NCBI RefSeq assembly: GCF_026626685.1
Contig: NZ_JAPNJX010000021.1
Span: 105,329 to 169,328, forward strand
Direction of reading: 5' to 3'
Origin: Nannocystis sp. SCPEA4
GTDB taxonomy: Bacteria; Myxococcota_A; Polyangia; Nannocystales; Nannocystaceae
DNA length: 64,000 nt
Both the position numbers and the translations under genes were made by a program. A model generated the notes under the pieces. It was not told where the DNA came from, made no database searches, and worked only from the letters and a program-made list of their open reading frames with translations. Positions 403 to 56,199 of this stretch are shown here, in pieces; positions within the stretch are counted from its first letter, which is position 1; each line of letters opens with the position of its first letter.

Positions 403-855
403 ATGCACTCCGCCGCGCTCCACGCCTACGCCGTCGCCGTCGCCGCCCTCTTTTTCAAACATTTCATGACCACCGCGATCCAGGGGCGCGAGCGGCTGCG
501 GACCCGCAGCTTCGCCTACCCCGAGGATGCCGCGCAGTGGCGGGGCGAGCACCACGACGGCCCGCCCTCGCCGCTGTGGGATCGCGCGGCCCGGCTGCTG
601 CGCAACGACGGCGAGAACCACGCGCTGTTCTTCGCCCTCGGCGGGGCCTACGTCGCCCTCGGCTGCCCCGACCGCCTCGGGGTGGCTTACTTCGCCGTCT
701 ACGCGGTGGCCCGCTGGGCCCACGCCGTCTTCTTGCTGTGGCCGCGCCAGCCGCACCGCAACCGGGCCTACGTCGTCTCGCTCGCGGTGCTCCTCGCGCT
801 CGCGGTGCACGTCACGATCGCCGGCCTCGGCGCGTGCGCGCTGCGGCTCGCCTGA
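403..855 (+). CDS. MAPEG-family membrane protein (microsomal GST-like)
   Basis: 150 aa with about four hydrophobic helices and the MAPEG-like signature R..NDGENH. Confidence 0.55.
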   Translation: MHSAALHAYAVAVAALFFKHFMTTAIQGRERLRTRSFAYPEDAAQWRGEHHDGPPSPLWDRAARLLRNDGENHALFFALGGAYVALGCPDRLGVAYFAVYAVARWAHAVFLLWPRQPHRNRAYVVSLAVLLALAVHVTIAGLGACALRLA

Positions 856-889: not shown

Positions 890-1633
890 CTAGCGGCCCG
901 AGAGGAAGCCGAGGCGCTGGAACAGCGGCTCGGGGGTGTGGCGGACGACGAAGAGGATCGGGCGCCAGTACCACGGGACGAACGCGACGGCCCGGCGGCG
1001 GGCGATCGCGCGGTCGATGTCGCGGGCGACCCGCTGCGGCGTGGCGAACAGGGCGTTCTTGGCGTGCGTCGCGGTCATCGGCGTGTCGACCGGGCCGAGC
1101 TTGAGGGTGGTGACGGTGACGCCGGCCGGCCAGAGCCGACTGCGCAGGCCCTGCAGGTACACGTGGAGCGCGCCCTTGGCGGCCCCGTAGGTATAGTTGC
1201 GCGGGCGGCCGCGCTCGCCGGCGACCGAGGTGATGACGGCGATCGTGCCGCTGCGCTGGCGCTCGAGCGCGTCGGCCAGCGGGATCAGCAGCGCCAGCAC
1301 CGAGACGAAGTTGGCCTGGACGATCCGCGCGGCCTCGGCGACGTCGTGCTCGCTCCGCTGCTGGTCGCCGAGGTCGCCGTGGGCCACGAACACGAGGTCG
1401 ACGCGGCCGTCGAGCGCCGCGATGCCCTCGCGCGCGAGCGCCTCGGCGCGGGCGAGGTCGGTGAATTCGCCGCTGGCCGTGGTGACCTCGGCGCCGCGGC
1501 AGCGGGCGGCCACCGCCGCGAGCTTGTCGGGGTCGCGGCCGACCAGGTGGAGCCGATCGCCGCGGGCGGCCCAGCGCACACACACCTCGGCGGCGATCGC
1601 GGAGGTGGCCCCGAAGACGATGACGTGACGCAT
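890..1633 (-). CDS. SDR-family oxidoreductase
   Basis: Start taken at the internal Met MRHVIVFGATSAIA (Rossmann TGxxxGxG-like). YGAAK catalytic motif present. About 248 aa, typical SDR length. Convergent with the upstream gene. Confidence 0.8.
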   Translation of the reverse strand: MRHVIVFGATSAIAAEVCVRWAARGDRLHLVGRDPDKLAAVAARCRGAEVTTASGEFTDLARAEALAREGIAALDGRVDLVFVAHGDLGDQQRSEHDVAEAARIVQANFVSVLALLIPLADALERQRSGTIAVITSVAGERGRPRNYTYGAAKGALHVYLQGLRSRLWPAGVTVTTLKLGPVDTPMTATHAKNALFATPQRVARDIDRAIARRRAVAFVPWYWRPILFVVRHTPEPLFQRLGFLSGR

Positions 1634-1708: not shown

Positions 1709-1790
1709 GACCTCAGGACATGCCCATGACGACATGCCTGATACGACATGCTCGATGAGACATTGCCGTTCGGACATGCCCAGGAGAGGC
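1709..1790. repeat. Five-unit tandem array of a 14-bp GACATG-containing repeat in the SDR promoter region
   Basis: GACATGCCCATGAC / GACATGCCTGATAC / GACATGCTCGATGA / GACATTGCCGTTCG / GACATGCCCAGG. GACATG starts at about 1718, 1731, 1745, 1759 and 1773. Confidence 0.8.
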
Positions 1791-4772: not shown

Positions 4773-4963
4773 CGCTGAGCACGGTACACGACCTCCGTCT
4801 CGCCCGGCGAGCGCGACCTCGCGCGCGAGCGCCCTCGCCCCTGCCCGCCGGCCCGCCTGGCGGCCCCTTCAGCTGTCCTTTCGGACATGTCGTGACGCAG
4901 ACAGGCGACCGCCCGGGCAGGTCGCCAGATCTGCCCGGGCGGTCTTCGTGGTGGGTGAGGATC

Positions 4964-6817
4964 TTACTCGCAGGCCTTGGTCTTGCCGACCTTGAGCTGG
5001 CAGATCGCGTCGGCGTAGGCGGCCGTGAACACATCGCGGCGGACGCCGGTCTGGCTCTTGCCGAGGTCGTCGAGGTCGGGGCTGAGCTGGCCGAGCTTCT
5101 CGCGGAGCGTCGACTCGGTGGTCCACAGCTCGGCGGCGGCGCGGCGGATCTCGACGTCCTCGTCGAAGGCGTTGAACACCGTGACGATCGGCTCCTTGTT
5201 GCCGCCGAGCGGCACGCCGGCGGCCTTGACGGCGAGGTTGAAGCGGTCGGCGTCGAGCTGCAGGAGGATGTTGTAGTCGTCGCGCTGCGGGTAGAGGGCG
5301 CGGATGGCGTCGAGCTCGACGTCGTCGAAGTCGCCCTCGCCGAGGTTCTGGTCGACCTCCCAGCGCAGGTCGTCTTCCTTGTTGATCATGCCGACGTTGT
5401 GGCAGCCCATGCACGACTTGCCGTTGCGGACCACGCCGTCGGGCGCGTTCTTGTCCTGCACGATCTGGATCGGCGCGTCGTCGATGCGGCGGCCGTCGTT
5501 GGCGACGATCATGTAGCCCTGGAGGCCGTTCGGCAGGCTGTAGATGATCTCGCTGCCGGCCTCGACGAAGTTGAACGGGTCGACGAAGACGTTGGCCTCG
5601 CCGGCGTTGCTGATGAAGTCGTAGCTGATCCAGTAGACGCGGTTGCTGGCGTTGGGGAAGTCGTGGCGCTCGATCACGCGGTGGTTCTCGGACACGCCCG
5701 ACTCGTGGAACGCGGCGCGCGCGACCCGGTTCGGGTTGGTGTCGATCTCCTCCTGGATGTTGAAATCGACGTCGATGCCGAAGCTGGCCTCGAGCTCCTG
5801 GCGGGTCAGCGGGATCCGCAGGACGTCGTGGTAGAGCGGCGGCTGGGCGGCGACCTCGACGAACGCGTCGGCCTGCAGCAGGAAGAACTTCGTGCCCGTG
5901 GCCTGCTTCACGTCCTCGGCGCTGTCGCCGATGAACTCGATCGCGTACGGGTCCTTGGCGGCGATCAGCTCCCAGGTGTCCTTGAACTGCTCGGTGAACG
6001 TGCCGGTCTCGGGGTCGAGCACCCGGCCCGGGGCGTCCCAGTCGTAGTCGCGGATGTCGATGCGGAAGATCAGCTGGTCCGCGTCGATCGGCACCGGCGC
6101 CACGACCTTGATCTCGTTCGACAGGCTGTTGGCCAGCTTCGACAGCGCGTGGCGGTAGATGTCGATCTCCTCCTTACACCAGCCGTAGTTGTAGAGGTGG
6201 ACCAGGCTGAAGTAGCGGATGAAGGGCCGCGCGTCGGCCGAGATCTCCTGGGTGTTCAGGAGGTCGTTGCGGATCAGGTCGATGACCTGCGTGCGCGTCA
6301 TCCACGGGTTGTCGGCGCAGCCGGTGACGCCGGCGCACTCGCCGATCCACTGCTCGACCGCGCGGATGTCGTCCTCGCTCGGACGCTGCGTCTCGCTCTC
6401 GGGCGGCATCGGGGCCATCTCGGCGCTCATGCGGCGGTAGATCGCCGAGTTGTTGGGCTCGCCGGGGACGACCTTGCCGTTCGAGATCAGCGCGTCGAGG
6501 TTGGTGATGTAATTGATGCTGCCGAGCGCGGCGCTGTCGGGCCCGTGACACTTCGAGCAGTTGACGTCGAGGATGTCGAGCGTCTTGGCCGACAGCTCGC
6601 CACAGTTGGCGTCGCCCGGCTGCTCGCTGCCGGTGGCGCCGCCGTCGGTGGTGCCGACGCTGTCGCTGCCCGGGCCGGTCCCTTCGGTGCTCTCGGTCTC
6701 GCCGCCGCCGCCGCTGTCACCGGGGAGGACGACGGTCTTGCAGGCGCCGCCGGCCAGCAGGGCCAGCGCAGCGGCAGTGACGAGCGGGATCGGGGAGTAG
6801 GATGAACGTTGAGACAT
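4964..6817 (-). CDS. Lipoprotein with PSCyt-like c-type cytochrome motifs (two CxxCH)
   Basis: Signal peptide with lipobox LLAGGAC. CSKCHG followed by a PSCyt1-like signature (...VVPGEPNNSAIYRRM...MPP) and a second CMGCHNVG motif. 617 aa. ATG at 6817. Confidence 0.7.
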   Translation of the reverse strand: MSQRSSYSPIPLVTAAALALLAGGACKTVVLPGDSGGGGETESTEGTGPGSDSVGTTDGGATGSEQPGDANCGELSAKTLDILDVNCSKCHGPDSAALGSINYITNLDALISNGKVVPGEPNNSAIYRRMSAEMAPMPPESETQRPSEDDIRAVEQWIGECAGVTGCADNPWMTRTQVIDLIRNDLLNTQEISADARPFIRYFSLVHLYNYGWCKEEIDIYRHALSKLANSLSNEIKVVAPVPIDADQLIFRIDIRDYDWDAPGRVLDPETGTFTEQFKDTWELIAAKDPYAIEFIGDSAEDVKQATGTKFFLLQADAFVEVAAQPPLYHDVLRIPLTRQELEASFGIDVDFNIQEEIDTNPNRVARAAFHESGVSENHRVIERHDFPNASNRVYWISYDFISNAGEANVFVDPFNFVEAGSEIIYSLPNGLQGYMIVANDGRRIDDAPIQIVQDKNAPDGVVRNGKSCMGCHNVGMINKEDDLRWEVDQNLGEGDFDDVELDAIRALYPQRDDYNILLQLDADRFNLAVKAAGVPLGGNKEPIVTVFNAFDEDVEIRRAAAELWTTESTLREKLGQLSPDLDDLGKSQTGVRRDVFTAAYADAICQLKVGKTKACE

Positions 6818-8313: not shown

Positions 8314-11300
8314 TTAGTAATTCGCATTACCAAACGATCGTTCGCACGCGGCGGCCCGCGCGTCGGCGGTCTCCTGCGATTCGCCCAGGTGGCGCCGGCG
8401 CTCGGCGGGCTGCAGGCAGGCCTGCGTGGCCGCGACGAGGCGCGCGTGCAGATCGGCGTTCAGGCGCGGCCAGACGACGACGCGGCCGTCGGCGCCGGCC
8501 GATGCCAGGCGGTCGCCGCGCGCGTCGAAGGCGAGCGCGTGCACGCCGGCGCCGTGACCCGTGAGCACCTCGGGGCCGTCGTCGCCCTGCAGCGACCAGA
8601 AGTGGAGCTCGCCGTCGGCCGCACCGGCGGCGATCCACGCGCCCTGCGGATCCCAGGCGACGCTGTCGAGCGGCGCGCCGGCGCGACCGACCTCGCTGCG
8701 CACCCCGGTGGCCGCGGCGATCCGCACCAGCGCCCTGCCCTCGCCCGCGACCGCGAGCGCGTCGCCGGCGGGGCTCCAGGCCAGCGCGCGCAGCGGCTGG
8801 CCCAGCTCGATGAACACGGTCTGCTCCACGCGCACCAGCACGAAGCCGGTCGCGGTCACGGCCGCCAGGCGCTCGTCGACCGGCGACCACGCCAGCGCGG
8901 TGATCGGCCCGCGACCCTGGGCGGCGCGTGTCGGATCGGGCATGTTCTCCGAGACATGTCCTGGAGGCCAGATAAAAAAGCTGCCGTCGCTGCCGCCGGC
9001 GGCCAGGCGGCCCGTGCGAGGGTCCCACGCGAGCGCGGGCACGGACCGGCGATCGACCGTGGCGCGCCGGGTCGCGCCCTCGCCGACGGGCAGCCAGGTG
9101 ATCGCGCCGGAATCGTCGGTGATCGCCAGCTCCTGGCCGTCGGGGCGCCAGGCCAGCGCGAGCGCGGTGCCGGCGTGGTCGCGGCGGCGCACCGGCCCGC
9201 CGTCGACCGGCAGCAGCCACACGCTGCGGGCCCCGGCCGCCGCCAGCCTGGTGCCGTCGGGGCTCCACGCGACCGCGTGCACGGCCGCGCCGACGTCGTG
9301 CTCGCGCAGGGCCGCCGGCGTGAGCCGCCAGACCCGCGCGCTGCCGTCGTCGCTGCCGCTGACCAGGCGGACGCCGGTCGGCGCGAACGCCAGCGCCCGC
9401 ACCGGGCCGGTGTGGCCGCGCAGCACGTACGGCCGCGCCGCGCCGCCGAGCCGCCACACCCGCGCGCTGCCGTCGTCGCTGCCGCTGGCCAGCCAACCTG
9501 TCCCGAAGGCCAGGCTCGTGACGCCGCCGTCGCCGACCACCGCGAACACCCGGCGCGCGCGGCCGTCGACGCGCCAGACGTCGACGCCGCCGTCGTCGCG
9601 GCCGATCGCCAGTTGGCGGCCGGAGCGGTCCCACGCGAGCGCGCTGACGGCCGCGCCGCGGTTGCCGATCGCCAGCGCGCGGCCGTCGGCCACCAGCCAC
9701 ACCTCGCCGCGCGGCCCGGCTGCCGCGACCTGGGCCCCGTCCGGGCTCCAGGCGACGGCGGCGAGCGGGCCGCTGACGCCGCGCAGGGCGACGACCCGCC
9801 CGCCCGCCTCGAGCGAGACCTGCCCGCGCGCGTCGGTCCGCAGCTGCTCGCCGGCGGGACCGCGCCGCGGGTCGAATGCGGGCGCGCGGGCGGACGTGCT
9901 CGCCGGGCCGCCGGTGGTGGCGAACCGGCGCAGCCCGCCGGCGGCGTCGATCGTCTCGATCGCGTGGCTGTCCCAAGGGACAGGCGTGGCGCCGCCCGGG
10001 CCCGGGCTGTCCGAAGGGACAGGTGCACCTTGGCCCTGCGCTGACTTGTCCGAAGGGACAGCCTTGTCAGCGTCGGCGGTCGCGCCGCCGTCCGGACCCT
10101 GCCTGTCCCCGGGGACAGCTCCGCCCGCTGCCTCGACCCAGCGCACCGTCAGCACCGGCCCCTCGTGGCCGCGCAGGATCGCCGCGCTGATCGGCTCGGC
10201 CAGCACCCGCTGCGCCAGCGCCCCGGGGTCGTCGAGCTCGCGCAGCAGCAGCGCCGCGGTCGTCGGGTCGCGCGGCAGCAGCGAGAACGCGGCGTCGCGG
10301 ACTCGCAGCGCCTGCGCGTGGCGTTCGGCGGCGGCGCGCTCGGCCGCGAGCTCGTCGGCGGCGAACGGGACGACCTCGCCCACGCTCGTCGGCGGCGCCT
10401 CGCCCGAAGTGACCGGGCCTGCCTCGGGCTGGGCCAGGCTCACCCCGAGCGCGACCAGCCCGGCCGCGGCCGCGGCCGCTCCGCCGGCGATCAGGACCGT
10501 CCGCGCGCGTCCCGCTCCGGGCTCGCGGGCGAACCGCCGCGGCGGCTGGAGAGCAGCCAGCAGGTCGTCCATCGTCGGCCAGCGGGCGTCGGGCTTTTCG
10601 GACAGGCCGCGGGCGATCGCGCGGCGGATGCGCGGAGGCACGCGACTTTCGCGCGGAATGGGTGCGATCTCGACCTGCCCGAAGCGCGGAACCGAGCCGA
10701 ACGGGCGCAGTCCGAACAGCCCCTCGAACAGCGCCACGCAAAAGCTGAACTGATCGGAGCGCGGCTCGGCGGCGCCGTAACGCTGCTGCTCGGGCGCCAT
10801 GTAGGCGGGCGTGCCGAGGATGCTGCCGGTGCGCGTGAGCGGCTCGAGCTCGTCGTCGAGGCTCTCGCCGGCATCGAGGGCGCACGTGAGGCCGAAGTCG
10901 AGGACGCGGGCGCGGCCGCGGTTGTCGACGAGCACGTTCTCGGGCTTGAAGTCGCGGTGGAGCAGGCCCGCGTGGTGAGCCGCAGCCAGCGCCCGCCCGG
11001 CCTGCAGGTACACCATGAGCACCGCGTGCCACGGCCGCGGGCGCTCGCGCAGCCAGGCCTCGAGGGTCACGCCCTCGATCAATTCCATGGCGATGTAGAC
11101 CTGGTCGCCCCACGCGCCGACCTCGTAGATCCGCGCCACGTGCTCGTGCTCGAGGCGGGCCATCGCTCGGGCCTCGCGCAGCAGACGGGCGCGACCCTGC
11201 TCGTCGCCCTGGAGGTGCGGGTGCACCAACTTGATCGCCACGCGGCGGCCGAGTTGGGCGTCGACGGCCGCATACACGACGCCCATGGCCCCCGCCCCGA

Positions 11301-14889: not shown

Positions 14890-14895
14890 CATCGT

Positions 14896-14967
14896 GCAAG
14901 CGCGGAGCCTCGTGTGCTCGCAGGCGCGGAGCCTCGTGCACTCGCAGACGCGGGGCCTGTGGCGATT
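14896..14967. repeat. Tandem 24-nt direct repeat x3 immediately downstream of rsgA
   Basis: GCGCGGAGCCTCGTGTGCTCGCAG / GCGCGGAGCCTCGTGCACTCGCAG / ACGCGGGGCCTGTGGCGATTG. Confidence 0.6.
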
Positions 14968-15260
14968 GTCGAGCGGGCGGCCGAGGGGCGGCGCGGCAGG
15001 TCCCTCGCGACGCGGGTCCTCCCGGACCAGGTGCTCGTCGGCGATGACAGGTGGCGCGCGTCCGCCGATCGGCCCGCCGCCTGCGCGCCAGGTCCAGGTC
15101 CTCCCGCTGCGTCCCACCACGCCGCCCCTCGTCCGCCCTGAGGAGATCGTCGCGGGCCCCGCTCGTCGCCGACGAGTCGTACCGCCGGCCCAGGGCCAGC
15201 TGCATGGATAGACATGTCGTAGAGGACATGATCTCTGGACTATGTTTCAAAGAACATGTC

Positions 15261-15934: not shown

Positions 15935-16942
15935 ATGTGCCTGCGTCCCTCGCCCTTGCCTCGCCTCGCCCGCGCTCGCGTGGCCTGGGCGATCGCGCTG
16001 GGCCTCGCGGTCGCGCCCGACGCTGCAGCCGCACCGGCGCCGCGCCCCGTGCCGGCAGCGAACAAAGCCACCGCAGCCGCCGCGGCCGCGGTGCGTCCTT
16101 CGGTCGACCTCGAGCCTGACGGCGGTGGTCGGCTGAAGCACCGCGGCCACGGCTTCACCGCGATCATCTACCCCGACGGTTCGGTCGAGTTCCGCGATCA
16201 CGGCGGCACCGCGGACATCAATTTCTTCGGCCTCGATCTGTGGCGCCAGCGCTTCCGCGAGCCCGAGCCCGAGCGTCATGCGCCGATCTGGATGGGCGTC
16301 ATCCACGATCGCCTGTGGCCGGTGCGCGGCTTCGGCCCGGCGCCGGTCCTCGCCGGTATCGGCGGCCGCTTCGGCGGGCTCGCCGACGGCCGCCGCAAGG
16401 ACCGCCACAAGAGCGCCAAGCAGGCCTTCCTGCTGGCCACCGAGCAGCTGCGGTTCCGCCTCGCCAACGCCTGGTACAAGCAGCGCCTCCACAGCGAGCT
16501 CGCCGACCTCGGCGGCCAGCTGCTCGAGGTGTGGCGCGACACCAAGTTGCCGCTGGCCGAGCGCAAGCGCCGGATCTTCGAGCGCTGGGAGGAGTGCGAG
16601 GACGCCACCACCACCCGTCGCACCGAGATCGACGCCATGCGCCTCGAGGTCGCCCGCACCGCTCGCGCCAAGATCGAGGCCTTCGTCCGCCAGGTCGCCC
16701 CGTACGGCTCGCCGCAGGCCTACACCGAGGCCGAGCTCGACCGCTTCAACGCCCGCCGCGCCGGCAAGACCCGCTTCCGCCCCTACGACGCCCCCATTGC
16801 GATCGAGGACGTGACCGCCGAGTCCGAGCTCGGCACCTCCACCGAGAAGCCGCTCGAGCCGCCGCCGCAGGAGCCCGCGACGCCGTCGATGGCCACGCCG
16901 CTCGGCCCCGCTCCCGGCCCCGTCTTCTCGCCCGCACCATGA
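15935..16942 (+). CDS. Secreted hypothetical protein
   Basis: ATG start, signal peptide (WAIALGLAVAPDAAAAPA), non-repetitive coding-like composition. 335 aa. Confidence 0.5.
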   Translation: MCLRPSPLPRLARARVAWAIALGLAVAPDAAAAPAPRPVPAANKATAAAAAAVRPSVDLEPDGGGRLKHRGHGFTAIIYPDGSVEFRDHGGTADINFFGLDLWRQRFREPEPERHAPIWMGVIHDRLWPVRGFGPAPVLAGIGGRFGGLADGRRKDRHKSAKQAFLLATEQLRFRLANAWYKQRLHSELADLGGQLLEVWRDTKLPLAERKRRIFERWEECEDATTTRRTEIDAMRLEVARTARAKIEAFVRQVAPYGSPQAYTEAELDRFNARRAGKTRFRPYDAPIAIEDVTAESELGTSTEKPLEPPPQEPATPSMATPLGPAPGPVFSPAP

Positions 16943-16950
16943 CCCTTGAG

Positions 16951-17100
16951 ACATGTCTCATCGGCCATGTCACGGAGAGCATGTCGTGGCGGACATTTTC
17001 TCGGAGACATGTCCAGATGCTCATCCCGGATCGGGCATGTCTCGGAGAGCATGTCGGATCAGACATTTCCGTGACGACCTATCCGAATGCGCATTCTTCG
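16951..17100. repeat. Intergenic array of GACATGTC-family short repeats (period about 12-14 bp)
   Basis: GAGACATGTCTCATCGGC / CATGTCACGGAGAG / CATGTCGTGGCG / GACATTTTCTCGGAGACATGTCC ... GGGCATGTCTCGGAGAGCATGTCGGATCAGACATTTCC. Confidence 0.7.
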
Positions 17101-17470
17101 CGCGCACCGCCCGTCGGCCAGCCTCCGGACGCACGCGACCATCTTCTCCCCGCGCACCTACCCCCCTCCGCACATCACCTTTCGCTCGCACGCACGGATC
17201 CCCTCTGTCCTTCCGGACATCACCTCCCCTCGCTCCCGCCATGTCCCTCCAGACATGTCCTTCGCGCCACGCGCAGCGCCCGCCGCGGCCTGTTACGGCC
17301 GAGCCCGCCCGCCGCAGTCCGCGCGGTCGGCACGGACGCCGGCGCGGACTTGCGTATGCGCGCGCGACGGCCCGCGCGACCGCGCGTGAGGCAGCTGCGT
17401 GCTATCCCGAGCGCGCGAGGGAATGGGCAGCCGGCCCAAGCCGTTGTCGCGATTTCCTCGTCCCGTCGTC

Positions 17471-22523: not shown

Positions 22524-22579
22524 TTTCGCTTCGGTGTTGACGCGGGCCACGTCCGGCGAAAGCTGGGCGCGGCCCGCCT

Positions 22580-22822
22580 CGCGAATTGCCGACTGCGCCT
22601 CGCGTGGGGTCCGGGGAAGGGTCGGCCGCGAGTTCAGCGTGCCGATGCCCCCTCCTGCGTCGGGGTCATCTTGCCCTCGTATTCGCGGCCGACCCTTCCC
22701 CGGACCCCTGGCACGGCTGCAGCCGTGAGAGGCCGACACGCCGTCCTCGACTCCGATGGAGGATGTCCTTTGGAGCAGCTTGCCAGCGCCTGGTCGACGG
22801 CCAGGGCTGGCCGCCGACCAGA
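22580..22822. repeat. Copy A of a roughly 235-bp dispersed element carrying an internal 21-bp inverted repeat
   Basis: About 85-90% identical to the reverse complement of 28912..29148. Internal stem GGGGTCCGGGGAAGGGTCGGC ... GCCGACCCTTCCCCGGACCCC separated by about 60 nt. Confidence 0.75.
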
Positions 22823-23056
22823 CGCTTTCTCAGGTCATTACGGCGTGTCATCTCCCACGGCGTGCGCTTGCCGTGCGCCGCACAGCGCCTTCCCAAGACG
22901 TGGTGAGAGACAGGCGTCGATCTTGCTGACGAGGGCCGGCGCATGCGGTGACATGACTTAGAGACATGTCTTTTTAAACAGTCCATGACCATTCACGGGT
23001 TCGCGCTGGCGCGCAGGCGTGTGCTCGCGCATGCTCGCGTCCGGAGACCCGGACCC

Positions 23057-23479
23057 ATGCCACACAGTTATCACGGCAGCTGTCACTGCGGCACGATCCG
23101 CTTCGAGGCCGACATCGATCTGGCCGCCGGCATTCGCAAGTGCAACTGCAGCTTCTGCTGGAAGCTCGGCTATCGCAAGGCGCTCGTCCCGTACGACGCC
23201 GTGCGCACGACCGCAGGCGCCGAGGCGATGAAGGACTACCAGCCGACCCCCCTGCACTGGCCCCCCGGCGACATCAACCACTACTTCTGCGGCTCGTGCG
23301 GCGCGCACGTGTTCTCGCGCGGCTACCTCGAGAAGGAGATGGGCGGCCACTTCTGGGCCGTCAACGTCGCCTGCCTCGACGACGTCACCGAAGAGGAGCT
23401 CGCGGCGGCCCCGGTCATCTACGAGGACGGCAAGCGCGACCGCCAGGACCAGCCGCCCGCCATCACCGCCTACTTGTGA
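23057..23479 (+). CDS. GFA-family protein (glutathione-dependent formaldehyde-activating enzyme/CENP-V-like)
   Basis: MPHSYHGSCHCGTIRFE ... CNCSFC ... FCGSCGAH Cys pattern. 140 aa. Confidence 0.75.
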   Translation: MPHSYHGSCHCGTIRFEADIDLAAGIRKCNCSFCWKLGYRKALVPYDAVRTTAGAEAMKDYQPTPLHWPPGDINHYFCGSCGAHVFSRGYLEKEMGGHFWAVNVACLDDVTEEELAAAPVIYEDGKRDRQDQPPAITAYL

Positions 23480-23577
23480 GCCGCAGACGGTCGTCGAGCG
23501 ACCTGCCCGATCAAACATGTCACTCCCACTGGCGCGGCCGAAGTATCATCGCGCCAGCGAGACCAGCGACCGCTCGC

Positions 23578-25311
23578 TCAACCCGACCGCGCCCACGCCA
23601 CGAACGCCTCGAGCGCCGCCAGCGGAGCCTCGTCCGCGATCACGCGGGCCAGCGCCGCCAGCAGCTCCGGCTCCGCGTGGCCATCCAGGCGGGCCCGGGC
23701 CACGTTCGCGGCCAGCTCCCAGCCGGGAGAGCGCACCCCCCCGGCCAGCATCTCGCGCAGCTGCGCCAGCGCATCGGGCACGACCTCGGGCGCGTGCGCG
23801 TGCGCGTAGAAGCACAGCTCGCAGCGCAGCGGCGACCCGGCCTCCGACAGCTCGAGCGCCCGCGCCAGCAGCTCGCGCCCCTCCGCGCCGCGTCCCTCCG
23901 CGAACAGCAACCGGGCGAAGTTGCCGAGCAGGTTGGCGTCCTCCGGATCGGCCGCCAGCGCGCGGCGGTACAGCGCCTCGGCGCCGGCGACGTCGGCGAA
24001 CGCCGCCGCGCGGAAGTTGGCGTAGTTGCCGAGATGGTGCGCGTCGTCCGGCGCGGCCGCGATCGTCGCCTGGTAGCAGGCGTCGGCGCGCGCCCGATCG
24101 CCGCGGATCAGCGCCAGGAAGTTGGCGAAGTTGCCGAGGTGATCGGCGTCGTCCGGTGCGGCCGCCAGCGCCTGCTCGTAGTACGCCTCGGCGAGGTCGT
24201 GCTCGCCGCACACGTCGCTCAGGAACGCCGCGAAGTTGCCGAGCATGTCTGCATGGTCCGGCGCGTCGGCCAGGAACTTCTCATAATAACCGCGAGCCAG
24301 CGGGTTGCCGGCCGAATGTAGCGCCGTGGCGAAGCTCGCCAGCCGCGGCGAGTCGACCGGCAGCGCCTCCGCGAGCAACGCGAACAACGGGTCGCTCGCG
24401 GCGGCCGGCGCCATGTGTTCGCGCAACCGCGGGAACAACCCCCCCAGCGACGCCCCTGTCGGCTCGACCACGATCGCCACCCGCAGCAGCGCCAGCGCGC
24501 GCCCCCACGCCTGCGCCTCGATCGCCGCCTCGACGCCGCGGAGGAGCGCCCGCGCCTCGAACCCCGCGTCGACCAGCAGCTCGCGCGCCAGCGCCACGTG
24601 GGCCGCGTGCACCGGCCCGCGCTCGCTCGCCTGTTCGTGAAGCGCCAGCCGCGGGTGCTGCGGGATCGGCCCCGACAGCGCGAGTACCTCGTCCGCGAAC
24701 GCCACGCGCGCCGCCTCCTCGCGCACCGCCGTCAGCTCGTCCTCGCCGAGCGGCAGCGGGCCGTACACCACCCGCGCCGGCAACTCCGCCACACGACAGC
24801 GGCGCAGCAGCTCGGCCGTGCCCGCCACCTGCTGTTGATTGAGCGCCGTCAACACCACCACGCGATCGGCGAGCGCCCGCACCACCCGCTCCGTCGCCCG
24901 CGACAGCCCCGCCGGGCCGTCGACCAGCACCACGTCGGCGATCTCGGCGGCGTCGAGGCGGCGCCGCAGTTCGCCCAGCACCGCCGCGCGCTCGCCCTGC
25001 GGCCACGCGTCCAGACGATCCCAGTACGCCGCATCGAGCCGGCCCGCCCGCAGCACCCGCAGCGTCCCCGCGATCGGCACGCAGCACCCTGCCATCGCCG
25101 CGGCTTCCGGCACCCCCGCCGTCATCAGCTCCACGAGCCCGTCGCCGTCGCCGCCGGCCAGCCGCGACAGCCCCGGCGACTCGAGATCGGCGTCGACGAG
25201 CAACACCCGCAGCCCACGCGCCGCCAGCACGCGCCCGACGCCCAGCACCGCCAGCGTCCTGCCCACGCCGCCGTGAGCCGACCAGAACGTGATGAACGGC
25301 GCCGCCTGCAT
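23578..25311 (-). CDS. ParA/MinD-like P-loop ATPase domain (deviant Walker A lacking both lysines) fused to TPR repeats
   Basis: N-terminus FITFWSAHGGVGRT...VLLVDADL resembles KGGVGKT...D-D of ParA/MinD with K replaced by H and R. C-terminal half is TPR-like (AEAYYEQALAAAPDDADHLGNFANFL repeats). Confidence 0.6.
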   Translation of the reverse strand: MQAAPFITFWSAHGGVGRTLAVLGVGRVLAARGLRVLLVDADLESPGLSRLAGGDGDGLVELMTAGVPEAAAMAGCCVPIAGTLRVLRAGRLDAAYWDRLDAWPQGERAAVLGELRRRLDAAEIADVVLVDGPAGLSRATERVVRALADRVVVLTALNQQQVAGTAELLRRCRVAELPARVVYGPLPLGEDELTAVREEAARVAFADEVLALSGPIPQHPRLALHEQASERGPVHAAHVALARELLVDAGFEARALLRGVEAAIEAQAWGRALALLRVAIVVEPTGASLGGLFPRLREHMAPAAASDPLFALLAEALPVDSPRLASFATALHSAGNPLARGYYEKFLADAPDHADMLGNFAAFLSDVCGEHDLAEAYYEQALAAAPDDADHLGNFANFLALIRGDRARADACYQATIAAAPDDAHHLGNYANFRAAAFADVAGAEALYRRALAADPEDANLLGNFARLLFAEGRGAEGRELLARALELSEAGSPLRCELCFYAHAHAPEVVPDALAQLREMLAGGVRSPGWELAANVARARLDGHAEPELLAALARVIADEAPLAALEAFVAWARSG

Positions 25312-25440
25312 GCCTGCGACCTCTTCTACCCGCGTGCGCCCCGCGCCGCACGCCGCCCCTGTCCCCATACGGCGTGCGGTTTCACCCGTCGCGCCCCGCA
25401 GGCCCGCCTGCCCGCGACGAGTCCCACCGTCTCCGAGTGC

Positions 25441-25625
25441 ATGTCCATTCGGACATGAATCTATTCACATGTCCATTTAGACATGTCTTGTCAATTTCGA
25501 CGAGTCCATTCCTACGGACATTGTCTATGACTCCATGAACATATGTCCATTCAGGCACATTTCTGCGCCCCTCGACGGGCCGGGCCGCGCTGCGAAAGCC
25601 TGTCCGTAACGACATGTCCTACGAA
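25441..25625. repeat. AT-rich island made of tandem GACATGTCC-family repeats, upstream of the ParA-TPR gene
   Basis: CATGTCCATTCGGACATGAATCTATTCACATGTCCATTTAGACATGTCTTG...GACGAGTCCATTCCTACGGACATTGTCTATGAC...ATATGTCCATTCAGG...CGACATGTCCTACG. Local GC is far below the window average. Confidence 0.7.
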
Positions 25626-28063
25626 TCACCCGTCGGTGCACGCCCTCGCCGATCCTCGCGCGCCCACCTCGCCAGCGCCGCCAGCAGCCCCAGCGCTGCC
25701 AGCGGCCACAAGGGCGCCAGCGGATCGCGACGCGTACGCCGTTCGGCCCACGTCGCGGCCCGCTCCGGCGCCCACGCGAAGCGCAGCGATCCGGGCGGCG
25801 CCGGCGGCAGCCCGTGGCGTGCGCGCACCTCGGGGGCCAGCTGGGCGAACGGCTCCTCCGCGCAGTTCACCTGCGCCAGAACCCGCGTCTCGACGTGCGC
25901 CGCGAAGTGCTCCTGGCGATCGCTGCCGGGCGGAGGCAGCGGCGCGCGCAGCCCCTCGAGCCGCGCCTCGCGGGCCGGCTCGCCCGCGTGCTCGAGCGCC
26001 CAGCGGCGGCACAGGTAGCGCACGTGCCACAGCGACATGCGCTCGCGCTGCCCGAGCAGGTTGTCGCCGATCTTGCGCCAGCGATCGTGCCACGGATGCG
26101 GCAGCGGCAGATCGTCCGCGCGCTGCGGCCCCTCGTCGTAGCGGTGGCGGACCCCGGCCGCGTCGACCACCGTCGTCCGCACCAGCATCTGATCGCGCGG
26201 TGGATTGGGCGCGAACATCGACCACACCTGGCTGGTGTAGCTGAGCTCGATCCACGGCCCGACCAGCGCTCGCACCGGCCCACGCCACGGCAGGCTCGAC
26301 CACGCCGGCAGCTGCCACACCAGCAGCGCGACCACGTGGTACGCCACGAGCCCCCCGGCCGCCAGGCGCCCCGCCGGCCCGTGCGCCCACGGCTCGACCA
26401 GCGCCGTCGTCTCGCTGCGACGGCGCCGCGCGGCTCGCCAGCCGACGATCGTCAGACCTGTCCCTGCGGCCAGCCAGGCCGCGTGCCACGCCCGCGGCCC
26501 GGCGCCCGCGGCCAGCGCCACCAGTCCGCCCGCCAGCACCACCCCGCCCGCGGCCGCGATCGCCCACCCCGGCAGCGCCGCCGCGTCGCGGTGCAGGTGC
26601 GGCAGCGACGGGTCCTCCGCCGCGATGGCTGTCTCTCGGCCCAGGTGCTCGGGGACAGGTACGCGCACACGCGCCAGCCCGCGCAGCGCTCGCTGCAACA
26701 TCGCAATCGCCCACGGACCCGCCCCGCACACCAGATAGGCCGCCAGCGTCGCCGGCGCGAACGCCCCCACGGCCAGCAGCGCGTGGTTGGCGAGGTGGAA
26801 CAGCGCCCCGAACCCCAGCCACCAACGCGGCGCCAGAGGTCCTGCGGCCAGGCGCCGCCCCACCGCCGCCGCCCGGGGCCCCGCGATCGCCACCGCCGCG
26901 GCGATCGCCGCCAGCACCGCCAGCGTCGCCGCGCGCTCGAAGCCGCCGGGATCACCTGACTTTTCCACCAGGTCCTGAGGGACAGCCGCGGCCAGCCCCG
27001 CCGCCACCGCGATCCCGGCCCAGCACAGCCGCGCCCCCGCGCTCGCGGCCCCCTGCAGCGCCGGCGCTCCGCTGCGCGCCACGGCCCGCAGCGCCAGCCC
27101 GACCAGCACCAGCGGGAACAGCCGCTCCCACCACTCCACGCCCCAGCTGGCCAGGCGCAGCGGCCACGGCCCGACCGCAGCGATCACCGCGGACATGTCC
27201 CAACGGACATATGTGTCGCGCGACAGCACCAGCAGCAGCGCGTCGCCCGAGCGCCACGTCGGGCCCGACTTCGCCCAGCCGTTGACCGCGTAGCACAGCG
27301 CCAACTGGCCCGCGATCAGCGCCTGCGGCCACGCGGGGATCCGGCGGTAGATCGCCGCCAGCCCCCGCGGCGCCGCCGGCGACGGTGCCAGGCCCGCCCC
27401 GGCGCCTGGTCCCGAGGACATGCTCAAAAAGCCACGTCGTCGCAGGGCCCGGCAGCGCCGCCAGTTGTCGACGCTGAACGCCGCCCCGCAGCGCGACCAC
27501 ATCAGCAGGAACAGGAACGCGCAGAACACCTGCTCCCCGCCCCAGTGGGCGTCGCCGCGGCGCAGCAGCCCGGCGTACAGCAGCCAGCAGAGGATCGTGC
27601 TGACGCGGGTGCGCCAGCCCAGGGTCAGGCCGAGCGCCGCGACCACCAGCCCCGCGAAATGCAGCCGCACCGCCGTCGGGCTGTCCCCGAAGTACAGCGG
27701 CGACCAGCGCCCGCTGATCACGAACTCGAGCAGCGCCGCCAGGTCGCGCGGGCCCGCGGGCTCGCGCACGCCGTCGCCGAAGCCGATCGTCGCCCCGCGC
27801 CCCATGAGCTCCGGCACCACGGCGCGCGGCAGCAGGCCCTCGTCGGAGAATAGATAGTCGAGCAGCGGCGCGATCTCGACCGTTGTCGCCAGCAGACAAC
27901 AACCGAACGCGATCCGGAACAGCGCCAGCGGTCTCGGGTCGACCGCACGCAGCAGCACCCGCCGCAGCGCCTCACGGTGCAGCGCCACCAGCCCGACAAG
28001 GCTCGCCGACAACAGGACGAGCGCCAGCGCGAGCGCGAAAGACACCGCGCGAGTGTATCCCAC
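25619..28063 (-). CDS. HTTM-domain (vitamin K-dependent gamma-carboxylase-like) polytopic membrane protein
   Basis: 814 aa with many TM helices. N-terminal LALFRIAFGCCLL...IAPLLDYLFSDEG resembles the HTTM domain start. GTG start. Confidence 0.55.
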   Translation of the reverse strand: MGYTRAVSFALALALVLLSASLVGLVALHREALRRVLLRAVDPRPLALFRIAFGCCLLATTVEIAPLLDYLFSDEGLLPRAVVPELMGRGATIGFGDGVREPAGPRDLAALLEFVISGRWSPLYFGDSPTAVRLHFAGLVVAALGLTLGWRTRVSTILCWLLYAGLLRRGDAHWGGEQVFCAFLFLLMWSRCGAAFSVDNWRRCRALRRRGFLSMSSGPGAGAGLAPSPAAPRGLAAIYRRIPAWPQALIAGQLALCYAVNGWAKSGPTWRSGDALLLVLSRDTYVRWDMSAVIAAVGPWPLRLASWGVEWWERLFPLVLVGLALRAVARSGAPALQGAASAGARLCWAGIAVAAGLAAAVPQDLVEKSGDPGGFERAATLAVLAAIAAAVAIAGPRAAAVGRRLAAGPLAPRWWLGFGALFHLANHALLAVGAFAPATLAAYLVCGAGPWAIAMLQRALRGLARVRVPVPEHLGRETAIAAEDPSLPHLHRDAAALPGWAIAAAGGVVLAGGLVALAAGAGPRAWHAAWLAAGTGLTIVGWRAARRRRSETTALVEPWAHGPAGRLAAGGLVAYHVVALLVWQLPAWSSLPWRGPVRALVGPWIELSYTSQVWSMFAPNPPRDQMLVRTTVVDAAGVRHRYDEGPQRADDLPLPHPWHDRWRKIGDNLLGQRERMSLWHVRYLCRRWALEHAGEPAREARLEGLRAPLPPPGSDRQEHFAAHVETRVLAQVNCAEEPFAQLAPEVRARHGLPPAPPGSLRFAWAPERAATWAERRTRRDPLAPLWPLAALGLLAALARWAREDRRGRAPTGDS

Positions 28064-28135
28064 CGCACGGCGGGTCCGCCCGCGGACCGGCTGTTTTTCT
28101 GGTCACCGCCGGGCCGCGTCTGCTATGGTCCGCCC

Positions 28136-39283: not shown

Positions 39284-40744
39284 TCACGCCGGCGTGAACA
39301 CGAACGGATACGTCACCGCCGTCGAGCCTGCCCCCTCGGCCCGCGGGAACTTCCACCGCCGCACCGCCTGGGCGACGCAGGCCGACAGCGCCTGATCGCG
39401 GACATCGCTGTCGATCGCCGCGGCACTGGTCACCTGGCCCCCGCCGCCGATCACGAACTGCACGCTCACCCTGCCCTTCGCCTCCGGATCGCGGGCCAGT
39501 GTCTGATTGTAGCAGTGGCGGACCTCGGCCAGGTGCGCGCGGACGATCCGGCGAATGATGTCGCGGTCGAGGGCGCCCTGGGCCTCGCCGCTGCCCGGTC
39601 GCACTGTCGGCACCCGTGTGCCACGGCCGCCGAACGCCACGCCCGACCGCGACTGCCACGAGTTCGCCTCGACCCCACACCCGCAGCCCTTGCCGATCAG
39701 GCCGACCACGTCGAGGCCGGCCCCCTCGCCCGACAGCGGTCCGCCGCGCCCGGTGCCGACCAGTCCGAGGCCGCCGAGGCCGATCTCGCCGACCTGCGAG
39801 CCGCCTGCTCCGCCCCACACGTCGGCGTCGCCGTCGGCCCCGGCGTACGCCTCGCCCGCCCCGACGAACCCGCTCGCCTGCATCAGCCCGAGCACCCCGG
39901 CGCTGCGGGCCGCCTGCGCCGGATCGTGCCCGCGGCCCAGCGCCGGCACCGTGCTCGCCGGACCACGCGCCAGCCCGCCGAGCCGCGGCTGACGCACCGC
40001 CCGACCCGCCGACACACCTGTCTCTCCGGACATCCCGCCTACATCCGTGTCGTCGCCCGGGCTCGCCGCCTGCTCGCGCGCCGGCAGGGTCGCGCGCACC
40101 ACCCGACCGACGTAACGCTCGTCGTCCGGCCCCAGATCGACCTGTCGTATCGACAATGCCTCTTGAGACATGTGCAAAAGTACAGCCTCGAAACCGATCA
40201 ACCCGAGCCCCGCGGTCGCGATCGAGCGCAGCGGCAGATCGAGGCCGCCGCGCGCGATCGTCGTCGTCTCCGGCTGGACCGCGCGGATCTCCAGCGTCAC
40301 GGGTCCATGCGTCAGCGTGCAGCCGCTCGTGGGCACCCGCCGACAGCCGGCGGTGGTGAACATCCACGGACCGGTCGCGCCGGCGACGAAGCGCGGCGTC
40401 GCGGCGCGCGGCAGGCCGGGCAGCCGCTGCGACGGGCGTTCGCGCAGGCGCGACAGTCCGACCACCAGCGGCACCAGACCGAGCAGCGCCAGCGCCCCGC
40501 CGAGGCCCCCGGTGCCGAGCCCGGGCGCGGGCGGTCGCACCTCGCCGCGCAGCTGCGCGGCCGCCACCGCGGCGGCGTAACCGGACCAGTCCTGACGCAC
40601 CTCGCTGGCGAACAGCCCGAGCCCCCCGGCAAACACCAGCGCGCCGAGGCCCAGCGCCAGCGCACCGCGGCGACGCGGCGCAGGCCGCAGGTGGACCACG
40701 TCCAGCGTCGTGCGGCCGTACGTGGTGACGACTTCGATCCACAT
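39284..40744 (-). CDS. AgmX/PglI C-terminal-domain protein (TonB-C-like; myxobacterial gliding-associated family)
   Basis: N-terminal TM helix, Gly-rich middle, C-terminus LDRDIIRRIVRAHLAEVRHCYN...GRVSVQFVIGGGGQV...CVAQAVRRWKFP matches the AgmX/PglI C-terminal domain. Confidence 0.6.
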   Translation of the reverse strand: MWIEVVTTYGRTTLDVVHLRPAPRRRGALALGLGALVFAGGLGLFASEVRQDWSGYAAAVAAAQLRGEVRPPAPGLGTGGLGGALALLGLVPLVVGLSRLRERPSQRLPGLPRAATPRFVAGATGPWMFTTAGCRRVPTSGCTLTHGPVTLEIRAVQPETTTIARGGLDLPLRSIATAGLGLIGFEAVLLHMSQEALSIRQVDLGPDDERYVGRVVRATLPAREQAASPGDDTDVGGMSGETGVSAGRAVRQPRLGGLARGPASTVPALGRGHDPAQAARSAGVLGLMQASGFVGAGEAYAGADGDADVWGGAGGSQVGEIGLGGLGLVGTGRGGPLSGEGAGLDVVGLIGKGCGCGVEANSWQSRSGVAFGGRGTRVPTVRPGSGEAQGALDRDIIRRIVRAHLAEVRHCYNQTLARDPEAKGRVSVQFVIGGGGQVTSAAAIDSDVRDQALSACVAQAVRRWKFPRAEGAGSTAVTYPFVFTPA

Positions 40745-40820
40745 CGCCGGGCTCTACGCGCCGGTCGGGCCGCCTGTTCCCGCCCGGCCGTATTCTCAGA
40801 TGTCCATCCGGACATGTCCT

Positions 40821-44811: not shown

Positions 44812-45120
44812 GCCGGAGGCCCGACTTTCGCTCACCGTGGCCCCGCCGACGAGTGGCACAGCCCCTACTCGGCAGAGAGCGTTTTCGCGCATCGCCGGGA
44901 GCAACTACCGCGGCTGCGGCCCCCCAGCACGCGCCGGCGCGCCCGTCCCCGCCCACCACGGGCGGGCCGGCCGCCCCGCCTCGCCCTGCTGAGGACGGGC
45001 GATCTCCTCTCGTGCCGACCACGGTCGCCAAGTTCCTGTGTCTGCAGGCCGCCGCGCACGCTCTCGCGTGCTCCCGACATTCTCGGTCGACGCGGCCATG
45101 CTCGCGGCGCCCGCATTGAA

Positions 45121-45175
45121 CAATATGCCCATAAGGACATGTCGATAACGCCATGTCCTCATGGACTCTCGTGGC
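45121..45175. repeat. Intergenic 14-bp-period GACATGTC-family array
   Basis: CAATATGCCCATAAG / GACATGTCGATAAC / GCCATGTCCTCATG / GACTCTCG. Confidence 0.65.
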
Positions 45176-46438: not shown

Positions 46439-46905
46439 GGCGGCGGACTCCTGGGGGCAAAGGGCCGACCGGACGGAGCGACGCCACCGAGACGCGCGAA
46501 ACCCCGCCGGCTCGGGCGGGGTTTCGCAGGGCGTGGACGACTCTCTCAGCGCACGCGCACGCGACCGACCCCACCCGGATGGGTGGTAGTGGTGGTCGCG
46601 GTGGTGGCGCGCCGGAGCATCGAATTCGGGGATACACGCCACCCTTCGATCGGTCAAGGCGAATGCCCGTGCGGAAGCTCGTATACGCCGGTGTGGGCAT
46701 TCGCCGAGCGCCAATCCAATCACCCCGGTCAGGCGAGGTCTGCCGTGATTGTGACGTCGGCCGCTCGCTCCGCCGCGGCCGCGGCGGTCATCACTCACAT
46801 GTCTCTTCAGACAGGCGAAGCCTTCACCGCCCGCGCGGGCGATCGCGCGCCCGTACTCGGGGACGCCCGCTTCCGGCCGTGGCCGCGCTGTCGTATCACT
46901 GCGCC

Positions 46906-48243: not shown

Positions 48244-48278
48244 GGATAGAAGGCGCGGAGCCCGGAGGACGGACGGCG

Positions 48279-48767: not shown

Positions 48768-48999
48768 GCCCCGAACATGCCGGACCGCACGGCGCCCCGC
48801 TTGACCGGCGGCGCCAGCCGTCGAACCGAACGCGCCAGTCAGTGCCGCGACCGGGTCCTTTCGAGCAGGCCTCGCCAGTTCTCCGCCACCCTGGCCGCGT
48901 TGCTCGTCGCTCACATATTGGCCCGACATGCTCCTCCTCGCGCTTGCCAGCCTGTCGCAGCCCGGCGCGAGGACGACTCGAAAGGACCCGGTCGCGGCG

Positions 49000-49998: not shown

Positions 49999-50012
49999 TT
50001 CCGGCGAGGATA

Positions 50013-56028: not shown

Positions 56029-56199
56029 CGTACCCCCTCCTCCAGGGATGCGCGGCGTCGTCCGCGGTGCAACCTCCCCCGTGCTGCCCGTCACGTCGGT
56101 CGGTCGCTGGCGACAAACCCTCCAGCGCCGAAGCGCGCCCGCACGCGGGGCGGCGCGACGCCCGGCTTTCACCCTGCCCCTTGGAACATTCCCTCGAGC

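Follow-up and report, generated by a model that had tools for sequence, protein, structure and literature searches.

Short palindromic repeats, interspersed at transcription-unit ends in Nannocystis and arrayed with a strict 14-bp period

What kind of element returns every 14 bp in the gap between two genes, and why does it stand there? The question is raised by a tandem array in the genome of Nannocystis sp. SCPEA4, at 1703-1780 of a stretch of 64,000 nucleotides (contig NZ_JAPNJX010000021.1, positions 105,329 to 169,328), here called the window, whose first nucleotide is position 1 in all coordinates given below. Six lattice positions follow one another in this array: GAGATGGA, GACATGCC, GACATGCC, GACATGCT, GACATTGC and GACATGCC. 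The window has a G+C content of 73% and its proteins are typically myxobacterial: an ECF sigma factor, Ser/Thr kinases that carry TPR or WD40 domains, and the product of a gene related to the major vault protein (MVP) are among them. A preliminary description of the same DNA had set the array upstream of an SDR gene, had given it a period of 13-14 bp in which a core is conserved and the remainder free, and had compared it to iterons and to a track for protein oligomerisation. The array is one member of a genus-wide family (Nannocystis/Nannocystaceae) of short interspersed palindromic repeats located at the ends of transcription units.

The hexamer GACATG occurs 82 times in the window, compared with 23.2 ± 4.5 times in dinucleotide-preserving shuffles, none of which (0 of 100) reached 82. 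Its exact pairs on the same strand are spaced by 14 bp (10 pairs), 28 bp (7), 42 bp (5) and 56 bp (4), and no other spacing up to 60 bp is found apart from a single one of 13 bp (22950/22963), so that the periodicity first described is real, stronger than had been claimed, and of exactly 14 bp instead of 13-14 bp. The opposite-strand spacings are equally restricted, since GACATG is followed by CATGTC only at 2, 16, 30, 44 and 58 bp, plus one case at 15 bp, and CATGTC is followed by GACATG only at 12, 26, 40 and 54 bp. These spacings obey 2+14n and 12+14n, and palindromic GACA|TGTC centres therefore lie on one strict 14-bp lattice. When the core is relaxed to at least 6 matches of 8, 40 pairs are found at 14 bp and 0-4 at each other spacing that is not a multiple of it, while in Markov-simulated sequence the mean is 0.9 and the maximum 4. 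Moreover, sites that lie 14 bp away from an exact hit are motif-like even when they are not selected for the motif.

The symmetry of the lattice leads to the repeat unit itself. In the window, TGTC-N6-GACA is found 32 times where 0.9 are expected, and other spacer lengths between these half-sites occur 0-3 times each, except for N20 with 8 occurrences, which is an echo of the lattice; GACA-N0-TGTC occurs 18 times where 0.7 are expected. Nannocystis loci contain 123 units at N6 versus 1 at N5 and 2 at N7, and between 5-bp arms only N4 is enriched, N3 and N5 being at chance level. Many TGTCC-N4-GGACA units are solitary, with no adjoining half-site. The basic unit is a 14-bp palindrome, TGTCC-N4-GGACA, usually with CA and TG flanks. 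The core in the preliminary description was rightly called conserved; that GACATG is half of a palindrome had been overlooked. The junction between zero-spaced units, here called the node, reads GGACA|TGTCC (GACATGTC or GGACATGTCC). As the 14-bp palindromes follow one another without a gap, the period is simply the length of one unit.

Each unit has 4-6 free bases, in agreement with the conserved core and free remainder already described. No constraint is seen on the four central bases: about 190 units show dozens of different centres. These bases are saturated with substitutions, yet indels are essentially absent, a pattern characteristic of half-sites held at a rigid distance. About 20 arrays with at least three lattice positions are present in the 64 kb, and the core is dispersed at about one locus per 1.5 kb. 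In the set used to compare spacers, arrays with 3, 4, 5 and 6 nodes number 29, 15, 10 and 6, respectively. Neighbouring spacers are slightly alike (2.42 versus 1.96 matches of 6), so that some tandem duplication occurs; longer similarity is shared by some arrays, in the form of 70-bp five-unit modules and 100-bp repeats. In general the spacers are not complementary to one another (2.10 versus 1.95 in controls).

Placement relative to genes was determined in two data sets: gene calls based on G+C at third codon positions (GC3) for the window, for L121 (a Nannocystis locus syntenic with 38.7-56.1 kb of the window at about 86-89% nucleotide identity) and for 34 Nannocystis loci; and six 21-kb loci anchored on threonyl-tRNA synthetase (ThrRS), unbiased with respect to the motif, with external gene calls. 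In the first set, exact units per kb amount to 5.7 in convergent gaps, 1.7 in tandem gaps, 0.61 in divergent gaps and 0.18 in coding sequence, the Markov chance level being 0.006, and the corresponding densities in the second set are 6.0, 2.2, 1.15 and 0.11. In the second set an element is found within 100 nt past the stop codon of 71 of 141 genes (64 of the 114 genes with a gap of more than 60 nt), whereas among 5' flanks only 13 of 129 have one, and among coding windows 5%. Past the stop, the first lattice point is most frequent at 0-17 nt, and the stop codon often overlaps the flank of the first node. Tandem gaps of the first set show the same bias, the median distance being 50 bp to the stop upstream but 178 bp to the start that follows, and six of the seven divergent gaps in the window are without any element.

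These counts reverse the framing in which the array stood upstream of the SDR gene, as arrays follow stop codons. The array at 1703-1780 lies in a 253-bp gap that runs from the stop of a Ser/Thr kinase gene (1887, minus strand) to the start of the SDR gene (about 1633, minus strand); the true start of the latter is placed there because the adh_short domain begins only at residue 74 of the long open reading frame (ORF). Positions 1709-1790 read GACATGCCCATGAC GACATGCCTGATAC GACATGCTCGATGA GACATTGCCGTTCG GACATGCC, with GACATG at 1717, 1731, 1745 and 1773; the five positions listed earlier were correct to within 1 nt, and four of them hold the hexamer, the one at 1759 reading GACATT. The array is a member of the 3'-end class, behind the kinase gene, and not an SDR-specific operator. 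Regulation of the SDR gene, or of specific gene classes, by an upstream track akin to iterons or operators would agree with the location of this array, 70-150 bp upstream of the SDR start, and with some other arrays that adjoin Shine-Dalgarno regions (56185-56248 and 62778-62827). Nevertheless, this explanation is very improbable given the scarcity of the element in 5' flanks and in divergent gaps, which are the promoter-only ones, and the proximity of arrays to the upstream stop in tandem gaps. Domain scans of the window ORFs revealed no function shared by the downstream genes, the units are palindromes and not direct repeats, and the fixed distance of arrays to start codons that had been suggested as a check does not exist.

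How widely is the family distributed? The pattern GACATG-N8-GACATG-N8-GACATG was scanned against one genome per species (185,579 species), giving at least 120 loci, and about 45 among the matches listed come from a few Nannocystis species or from one Nannocystaceae metagenome-assembled genome. Among the same matches, unit density is 0.48 per kb in Nannocystis/Nannocystaceae loci and 0.02 per kb in all other loci, the latter being therefore chance matches, and the arrays are essentially restricted to Nannocystis/Nannocystaceae among the matches listed. Occurrence in viruses was also considered and rejected, as nine matches in viral contigs look like chance and have no lattice content. A full-text literature search found no description of repeats of this kind in Nannocystis or other myxobacteria, and the family is apparently undescribed, its closest known kind being the interspersed extragenic palindromes known as REP and BIME.

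Relatives of the window allow the evolution of the arrays to be followed. The short ThrRS paralogue of the window is 93% identical to a cluster that includes Nannocystis punicea and 90% identical to the cluster of N. exedens, N. pusilla, N. bainbridge and N. radixulma, and its exact sequence, looked up in search of strain-level variants, is not on record. L121 and a second related locus, L122 (about 92% identity), are both rich in arrays, but the number of units and even the presence of an array vary between relatives: the array at 45122-45157 is missing from L121, a six-unit array of L121 occupies the place of a 25-bp gap in the window, and in front of ThrRS the divergent gap holds a single copy in the window, as against four or five in L121 and 2-5 spaced copies in relatives. 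In orthologous arrays the cores have stayed in register and the spacers have diverged, as seen between L121 and L122 and between RBIL2 and N. bainbridge. Node arrays are present in nearly all Nannocystis compared at four gaps, namely those between the GDH-like and histidine kinase genes, between the histidine kinase and OmpA genes, between the M16_C gene and the OmpA gene on which it converges, and between the VWA and ALK_GRD genes. In the gap between histidine kinase and OmpA, ACATGTCC is invariant in six Nannocystis genomes and the surrounding sequence is variable.

Some further observations were made in the same loci. The M16_C/OmpA gap of L124-L129 (for example 16122-16305 of L129) contains an A+T-rich stretch of about 20 nt, tcaatgaaagtttcataaa, between two node pairs and, beside the OmpA stop, a separate GC-rich hairpin, in a genome of 72% G+C; this layout suggests composite 3'-end regions. 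At 8041-8754 of L121, a 237-aa 'gene' annotated in the public assembly, with no Pfam match, consists of spaced repeat copies, and some ORFs annotated in Nannocystis are probably spurious on account of this repeat family. A 1.8-kb, two-gene segment of the window (48244-50013) is absent from L121 and L122 and stands in place of their array-bearing convergent gap, and the TonB_C gene (39284-40744) is found only in the window and in N. radixulma among the loci compared.

Is the palindrome read in DNA or in RNA? At arm pair 3/12 the counts are 283 for T-A, 61 for T-G, 49 for C-A and 21 for C-G, the last at the chance level of 17-19 set by N5 and N7 controls, and the compensatory class is therefore absent at this pair; one-sided deviations prevail at all five arm pairs. 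Oriented profiles are mirror-symmetric over 143 arrays, with no array polarity, and they refute a polarity that had been considered from a CATTG end node in two orthologous gaps. No U-tract is found 3' of the arrays (over the next 10 nt the fractions of T and A are 0.21 and 0.20, with no run), and RNAalifold across six orthologues detected no conserved hairpin through the invariant ACATGTCC. Conserved base identity, a rigid distance between half-sites and dyad symmetry are features that a dimeric DNA-binding protein imposes.

We infer that the motif is read by a protein on double-stranded DNA, and we likewise infer the effect of the boundary described next. The explanation favoured here, at somewhat less than even odds, is that the arrays are duplex-DNA sites for a dimeric protein, with one dimer per 14 bp, that mark the ends of transcription units. 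Each dyad would be read by a two-fold symmetric, sequence-specific dimer, and dimers would sit side by side on abutting dyads; 14 bp corresponds to 480 degrees, that is, to a step of 120 degrees, so three dimers would be placed per four helical turns. The outcome would be a protein-coated tract of 30-170 bp that lies between the stop codon and the next promoter, or fills a convergent gap, and such a tract could form a symmetric, orientation-independent boundary of the transcription unit. The boundary might block read-through as a roadblock, confine supercoils as a topological barrier or gyrase-type site, or anchor the nucleoid. The oligomerisation track of the preliminary description is in this respect still favoured, on account of the strict spacing, the base identity without covariation and the dyad, with the change that one dimer, not one protomer, would occupy each 14 bp.

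On the other hand, the same dyads could act as REP-like hairpins in RNA (or single-stranded nucleic acid), which at mRNA 3' ends would either bring transcription to a stop with no need of a U-tract or hold back 3'-5' exonucleases. CAUGUCC-N4-GGACAUG would form a stem of 5-7 bp with a tetraloop, and two adjacent nodes a 10-bp stem, hairpins that could define and stabilise 3' ends and work both ways between convergent genes. This explanation is unlikely, though by no means negligible. It accounts for the position directly behind stop codons and for the highest density between convergent genes, and it agrees with how well the arrays fold: z-scores reach -7.3 at 35005-35070, -5.2 at 45110-45170 and -5.1 at 16935-17080, and the transcribed strand of the array at 1703-1780 folds far better than its complement (-47 versus -31 kcal/mol). 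Additionally, canonical hairpin-plus-U-tract terminators are not above chance in the 1-20-kb part of the window (8 versus 4.2 ± 2.4), which makes another 3'-end device plausible. The sequences of the units, however, do not behave as stems, since single-sided T-G and C-A variants are common where compensatory changes are wanting, the loop is of exactly four bases, which hairpin stability does not need, and no fold is conserved in the six orthologues despite their invariant 8-mer. Nor is the downstream U-tract there, and long hairpins with complementary spacers, true of 35016-35061 and 45122-45160, are not the general form. A strand asymmetry expected for RNA is significant neither in minimum free energy nor in the count of G-U versus A-C mismatches: folding energies split 50:43 between sense and antisense (p = 0.07), and in the window this difference follows the absolute strand instead of gene direction. 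Finally, a canonical hairpin with U-tract does occur in the same genome, in the putative Thr attenuator at 46497-46524.

A different kind of explanation dispenses with organismal function and regards the family as a product of molecular drive, as a selfish mini-element or an uptake-sequence-like motif. The element could be mobilised in trans, for example by a RAYT-type transposase, or consist of TG...CA-ended 14-mers that insert at CA^TG and regenerate the target on both sides, or else spread by biased uptake and recombination, its copies building up where they are tolerated, such as 3' gaps, convergent gaps and linkers. Although rather unlikely, drive has several observations in its favour. 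The gradient from convergent through tandem and divergent gaps to coding sequence would follow from tolerance alone, the motif has a density of about 1 per kb and is specific to the genus, its CA/TG flanks suit insertion at CATG, unit number changes fast between relatives, and the likeness of neighbouring spacers together with the 70-bp and 100-bp super-repeats indicates tandem duplication. Solitary coding units, which are about 20-30 times above chance, lie mid-gene, mostly in linkers of multidomain proteins, and use two reading frames only (xVxxDx and LSxxTx), with the rare Pro codon CCT; coding copies of the Haemophilus uptake signal sequence (USS) behave likewise, in linkers and in restricted frames. 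Against drive, the N4 centres are highly diverse and hence not recent copies of a master element, and arrays begin 0-17 nt past stops far more often than a 'harmless place' model requires. Cores are kept at orthologous sites in six species while their neighbours have diverged, which points to purifying selection or to continuing drive, and no transposase gene or Y1_Tnp match was seen among the window ORFs scanned, a partial coverage in which no search was aimed at RAYT.

Several facts weigh against duplex-DNA sites for a boundary-marking dimer as well. No element at all is present in three of the window's six convergent gaps, nor in the three convergent gaps of N. radixulma L130, and the solitary units in coding linkers fit a boundary role poorly and resemble the footprint of a drive process. 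The elements are situated in 3' regions that are transcribed, and RNA folding is good for multi-node arrays (several with z from -2.8 to -7.3). The arrays at 35016-35061 and 45122-45160 are long hairpins with their spacers included, and in tandem gaps the sense strand shows a weak excess of G-U over A-C mismatches (67 versus 48, p = 0.09). Moreover, adjacent 18-bp sites would share CATG, so that simultaneous occupancy would need unusual packing, and both the protein and its binding are hypothetical. A more specific proposal is that a dedicated, sequence-specific DNA-binding protein polymerises on the lattices and provides the general, orientation-independent transcription-unit boundaries of Nannocystis, as roadblock terminators or topological insulators; this is conceivable but improbable, in the setting of a 12-13-Mb genome of 72% G+C in which canonical hairpin-plus-U-tract terminators are not above chance in one 20-kb stretch.

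If a protein lattice does exist, bacterial gene ends would be marked on the DNA by protein arrays, termination or insulation would be solved otherwise than by RNA hairpins or Rho, and the 10-bp invariant node would be a handle for fishing out the factor. If the family is REP-like or made by drive, it is still unusually clean, with a strict lattice, free spacers and a presence at about half of gene 3' ends, and could serve as a model for the colonisation and upkeep of short repeats in very large myxobacterial genomes, as an aid to annotation where arrays are mis-called as ORFs (as at 8041-8754 of L121), and as a taxonomic marker of Nannocystis in metagenomes.

Comparison with known systems places the family near several of them. 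REP and BIME elements are likewise lineage-specific short palindromes, with hundreds to thousands of copies per genome, in 3' and intercistronic positions; they shun promoters, cluster in alternating orientation at fixed short distances and vary in copy number between relatives, and the placement typical of them is found here. In contrast, the Nannocystis unit is 14 bp long instead of 20-40 bp, abuts its neighbours at zero spacing on a strict lattice, and has a free centre and arms without stem covariation; the maintenance of a stem that characterises REPs is lacking, with neither a compensatory class nor a conserved fold. BIMEs bind gyrase, IHF and Pol I, and REPs stabilise upstream mRNA; REP families have a cognate RAYT (Y1 transposase) and a conserved tetranucleotide 5' of the hairpin, and no such tetranucleotide was noted beside the Nannocystis units. 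DNA uptake sequences (DUS) of Neisseria and the USS of Pasteurellaceae resemble the family in their frequency of about 1 per kb, genus specificity, conserved base identity and tolerated coding frames. Inverted pairs of DUS/USS are frequent at gene 3' ends, and their coding copies lie in weakly constrained protein regions. They promote the preferential uptake of DNA by a competence system, and are asymmetric 9-12-mers that are not arranged in strict-period arrays, whereas the Nannocystis motif is palindromic and arrayed. Intrinsic terminators, which can also be bidirectional, share the position behind stops and between convergent genes and the dyad symmetry, and differ in that the Nannocystis arrays lack a U-tract and have a conserved stem sequence and a strict loop length.

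Among protein-bound systems, the tandem operators of ribbon-helix-helix (RHH) proteins, such as the metboxes of MetJ (AGACGTCT, two to five copies) and the sites of omega and ParR/ParG, also consist of abutting palindromic boxes of variable number and strict period. The metbox is 8 bp long and the omega heptad 7 bp, one RHH dimer binds per box with dimers side by side, and the metbox AGAC|GTCT resembles GGACA|TGTCC in outline. The differences lie in the period, 14 bp in Nannocystis versus 7-11 bp, and in location, at gene 3' ends genome-wide versus a few promoters or a centromere. Operators of helix-turn-helix (HTH) dimers have the same length and symmetry as (C/A)TGTCC-N4-GGACA(G/T), a 5-N4-5 arrangement equivalent to ATGT-N8-ACAT, and the Nannocystis unit has the two-fold symmetry, fixed half-site spacing and independently decaying half-sites of such operators. 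FNR-type boxes are 5-N4-5 (TTGAT-N4-ATCAA). The literature search matched only the string ATGT-N8-ACAT, which is present in a paper on the PadR-like regulator LftR (PMC4517056). HTH operators, though, number a few to hundreds of promoter-proximal sites and do not form abutting arrays behind about half of genes, and the Nannocystis sites avoid 5' flanks instead of sitting in the promoters of a regulon.

Other identities were considered and rejected. CRISPR arrays comprise 23-47-bp direct repeats with unique spacers of similar length, at few loci and usually with cas genes and a leader; the units here are palindromes of 14 bp that leave only 4-6 bases free, and a scan of about 40 ORFs gave no cas domains, so that the preliminary description was right to set CRISPR aside. 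Its likening to iterons, which are 17-22-bp direct repeats clustered at an origin beside a rep gene, does not hold, as the core is palindromic, loci are dispersed at about 1 per 1.5 kb and not at an origin, and no rep gene is nearby among the ORFs scanned. A start-codon or leaderless-mRNA signal fails on the ORFs whose ATG coincides with the motif, most of which are spurious by GC3 gene calls, the remaining starts being ordinary Met-Ser ones, such as that at 61577 with a normal Shine-Dalgarno sequence. CsrA-type GGA repeats in 5' leaders do not agree with the many units without GGA or with their mixed orientation, and a sigma-70 promoter does not agree with the depleted 5' flanks, no promoter-like sites being found. 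Known RNA families and tRNAs were searched for as well, and none was found. The LexA box (CTGT-N8-ACAG) is excluded by copy number and placement, and in comparison with the MrpC/CRP box (TGTC-N8-GACA) the spacing here is 2 bp too short.

Besides the array at 1703-1780, the following units and arrays are found in the window:
858-883: a node and a full unit, GGACATGTCCTTTCAGACAGGCC, filling the 34-bp gap between the convergent genes 403-855 (plus strand, MAPEG) and 890-1633 (minus strand, SDR).
1828-1863: a node 38 nt past the kinase gene stop, itself perfect (GACATGTC, 1842-1849) but flanked by degenerate ones.
4870-4891: a unit and a node, 73 nt past the stop of gene 4964-6817 (minus strand).
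9969-10117: four solitary TGTCC-N4-GGACA units spaced by 39, 39 and 57 bp in the linker of a kinase-WD40 ORF, encoding VPWD, VPSD, VPSD and VPGD.
15211-15260: a four-position array in the convergent gap 14890-15260.
16922-17083: the longest array, with 12 lattice positions, beginning where gene 16091-16942 (plus strand) has its stop codon (16940-16942).
17206-17259: further units near the longest array.
25438-25506: an array of 4-6 positions in the gap past the stop of gene 25619-28063 (minus strand).
25611-25618: a node abutting the stop codon of the same gene, 25619-28063 (minus strand).
35016-35061: three units that begin 7 nt past the stop (35009) of the GDH-like gene.
37672-37699: a node, GACATGTC (37682), with flanking half-units, 50-60 nt past the histidine kinase stop (37622).
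40797-40832: two to three nodes directly past the stop of the M16_C peptidase gene (40821, minus strand), with an equivalent in all species compared.
45122-45157: a three-position array about 60 nt past the stop of the ThrRS paralogue (45218, minus strand).
46796-46817: a node and a unit in the divergent gap 46439-46947, the sole divergent gap of the window that holds an element.
56185-56248, 56326-56347, 56410-56445 and 56511-56546: arrays in a 541-bp gap past the stop of the VWA gene (56570, minus strand).
61359-61409: units at 61363, 61378 and 61392 that begin 3 nt past the stop of gene 60440-61360 (plus strand), with one 15-bp step.
62778-62827: a four-position array of GCATGCC, GCATGGC, ACATGCC and CCATGCC variants just past the stop of gene 62835-63998 (minus strand).

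Solitary coding units also lie at 2630, 3373, 42297 and 58844. Most of the arrays named in the preliminary description were found as described (15211-15260, 35026-35061, 45122-45157 and 56185-56248), and the one given as 61361-61430 is present at 61359-61409 and partly irregular, on account of its 15-bp step. The array that had been called loose, at 16951-17100, is in fact the longest one, and arrays at 25438-25487, 40797-40832, 56410-56445, 56511-56546 and 62778-62827 extend the earlier list. The 12-position array is, over 16946-17085, a tandem duplication of a 70-bp five-unit module, and the five-unit arrays at 1692-1753, 56174-56235 and 62767-62828 show a mutual similarity that extends beyond their cores. 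The array at 35016-35061 is in full a perfect palindrome with 19-bp arms, and nodes at this position are also present in N. punicea, N. exedens and RBIL2. Three of the arrays within 56185-56546 lie in copies of a tandem repeat, 84 and 101 bp apart.

The region behind the VWA gene has repeats of its own. Non-coding tandem repeats of about 100 bp at 56316-56566 comprise three copies, each with 2-3 lattice units and a small GC hairpin, CCGGCCCGATGCCGG, and a separate family of direct repeats of about 45-100 nt has copies at 54805, 54914 and 55011 (region 54805-55055). Upstream of the ThrRS paralogue (45218-46438), a Thr-rich leader peptide, MLRRATTATTTTTHPGGVGRVRVR followed by a stop codon (46546-46620, minus strand), precedes the hairpin and U-tract at 46497-46524. 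The block at 46497-46620 is highly conserved in L121 and L122, has no Rfam match and, judged by its layout, looks like a classical Thr attenuator of the short (406-aa) ThrRS paralogue.

Two further features stand apart from the repeat family. Inverted repeat arms at 22576-22839 and 28890-29152, of about 265 nt and 82-88% complementary, lie 6 kb apart and flank the genes at 22985-28500; a copy that is 80-84% similar occurs in N. pusilla (633-924 of locus L038), and the ORFs in the arms have no Pfam match. The product of the gene at 30695-33244 (minus strand) contains MVP shoulder, Vault_3 and Band_7 domains and is a bacterial homologue of MVP.

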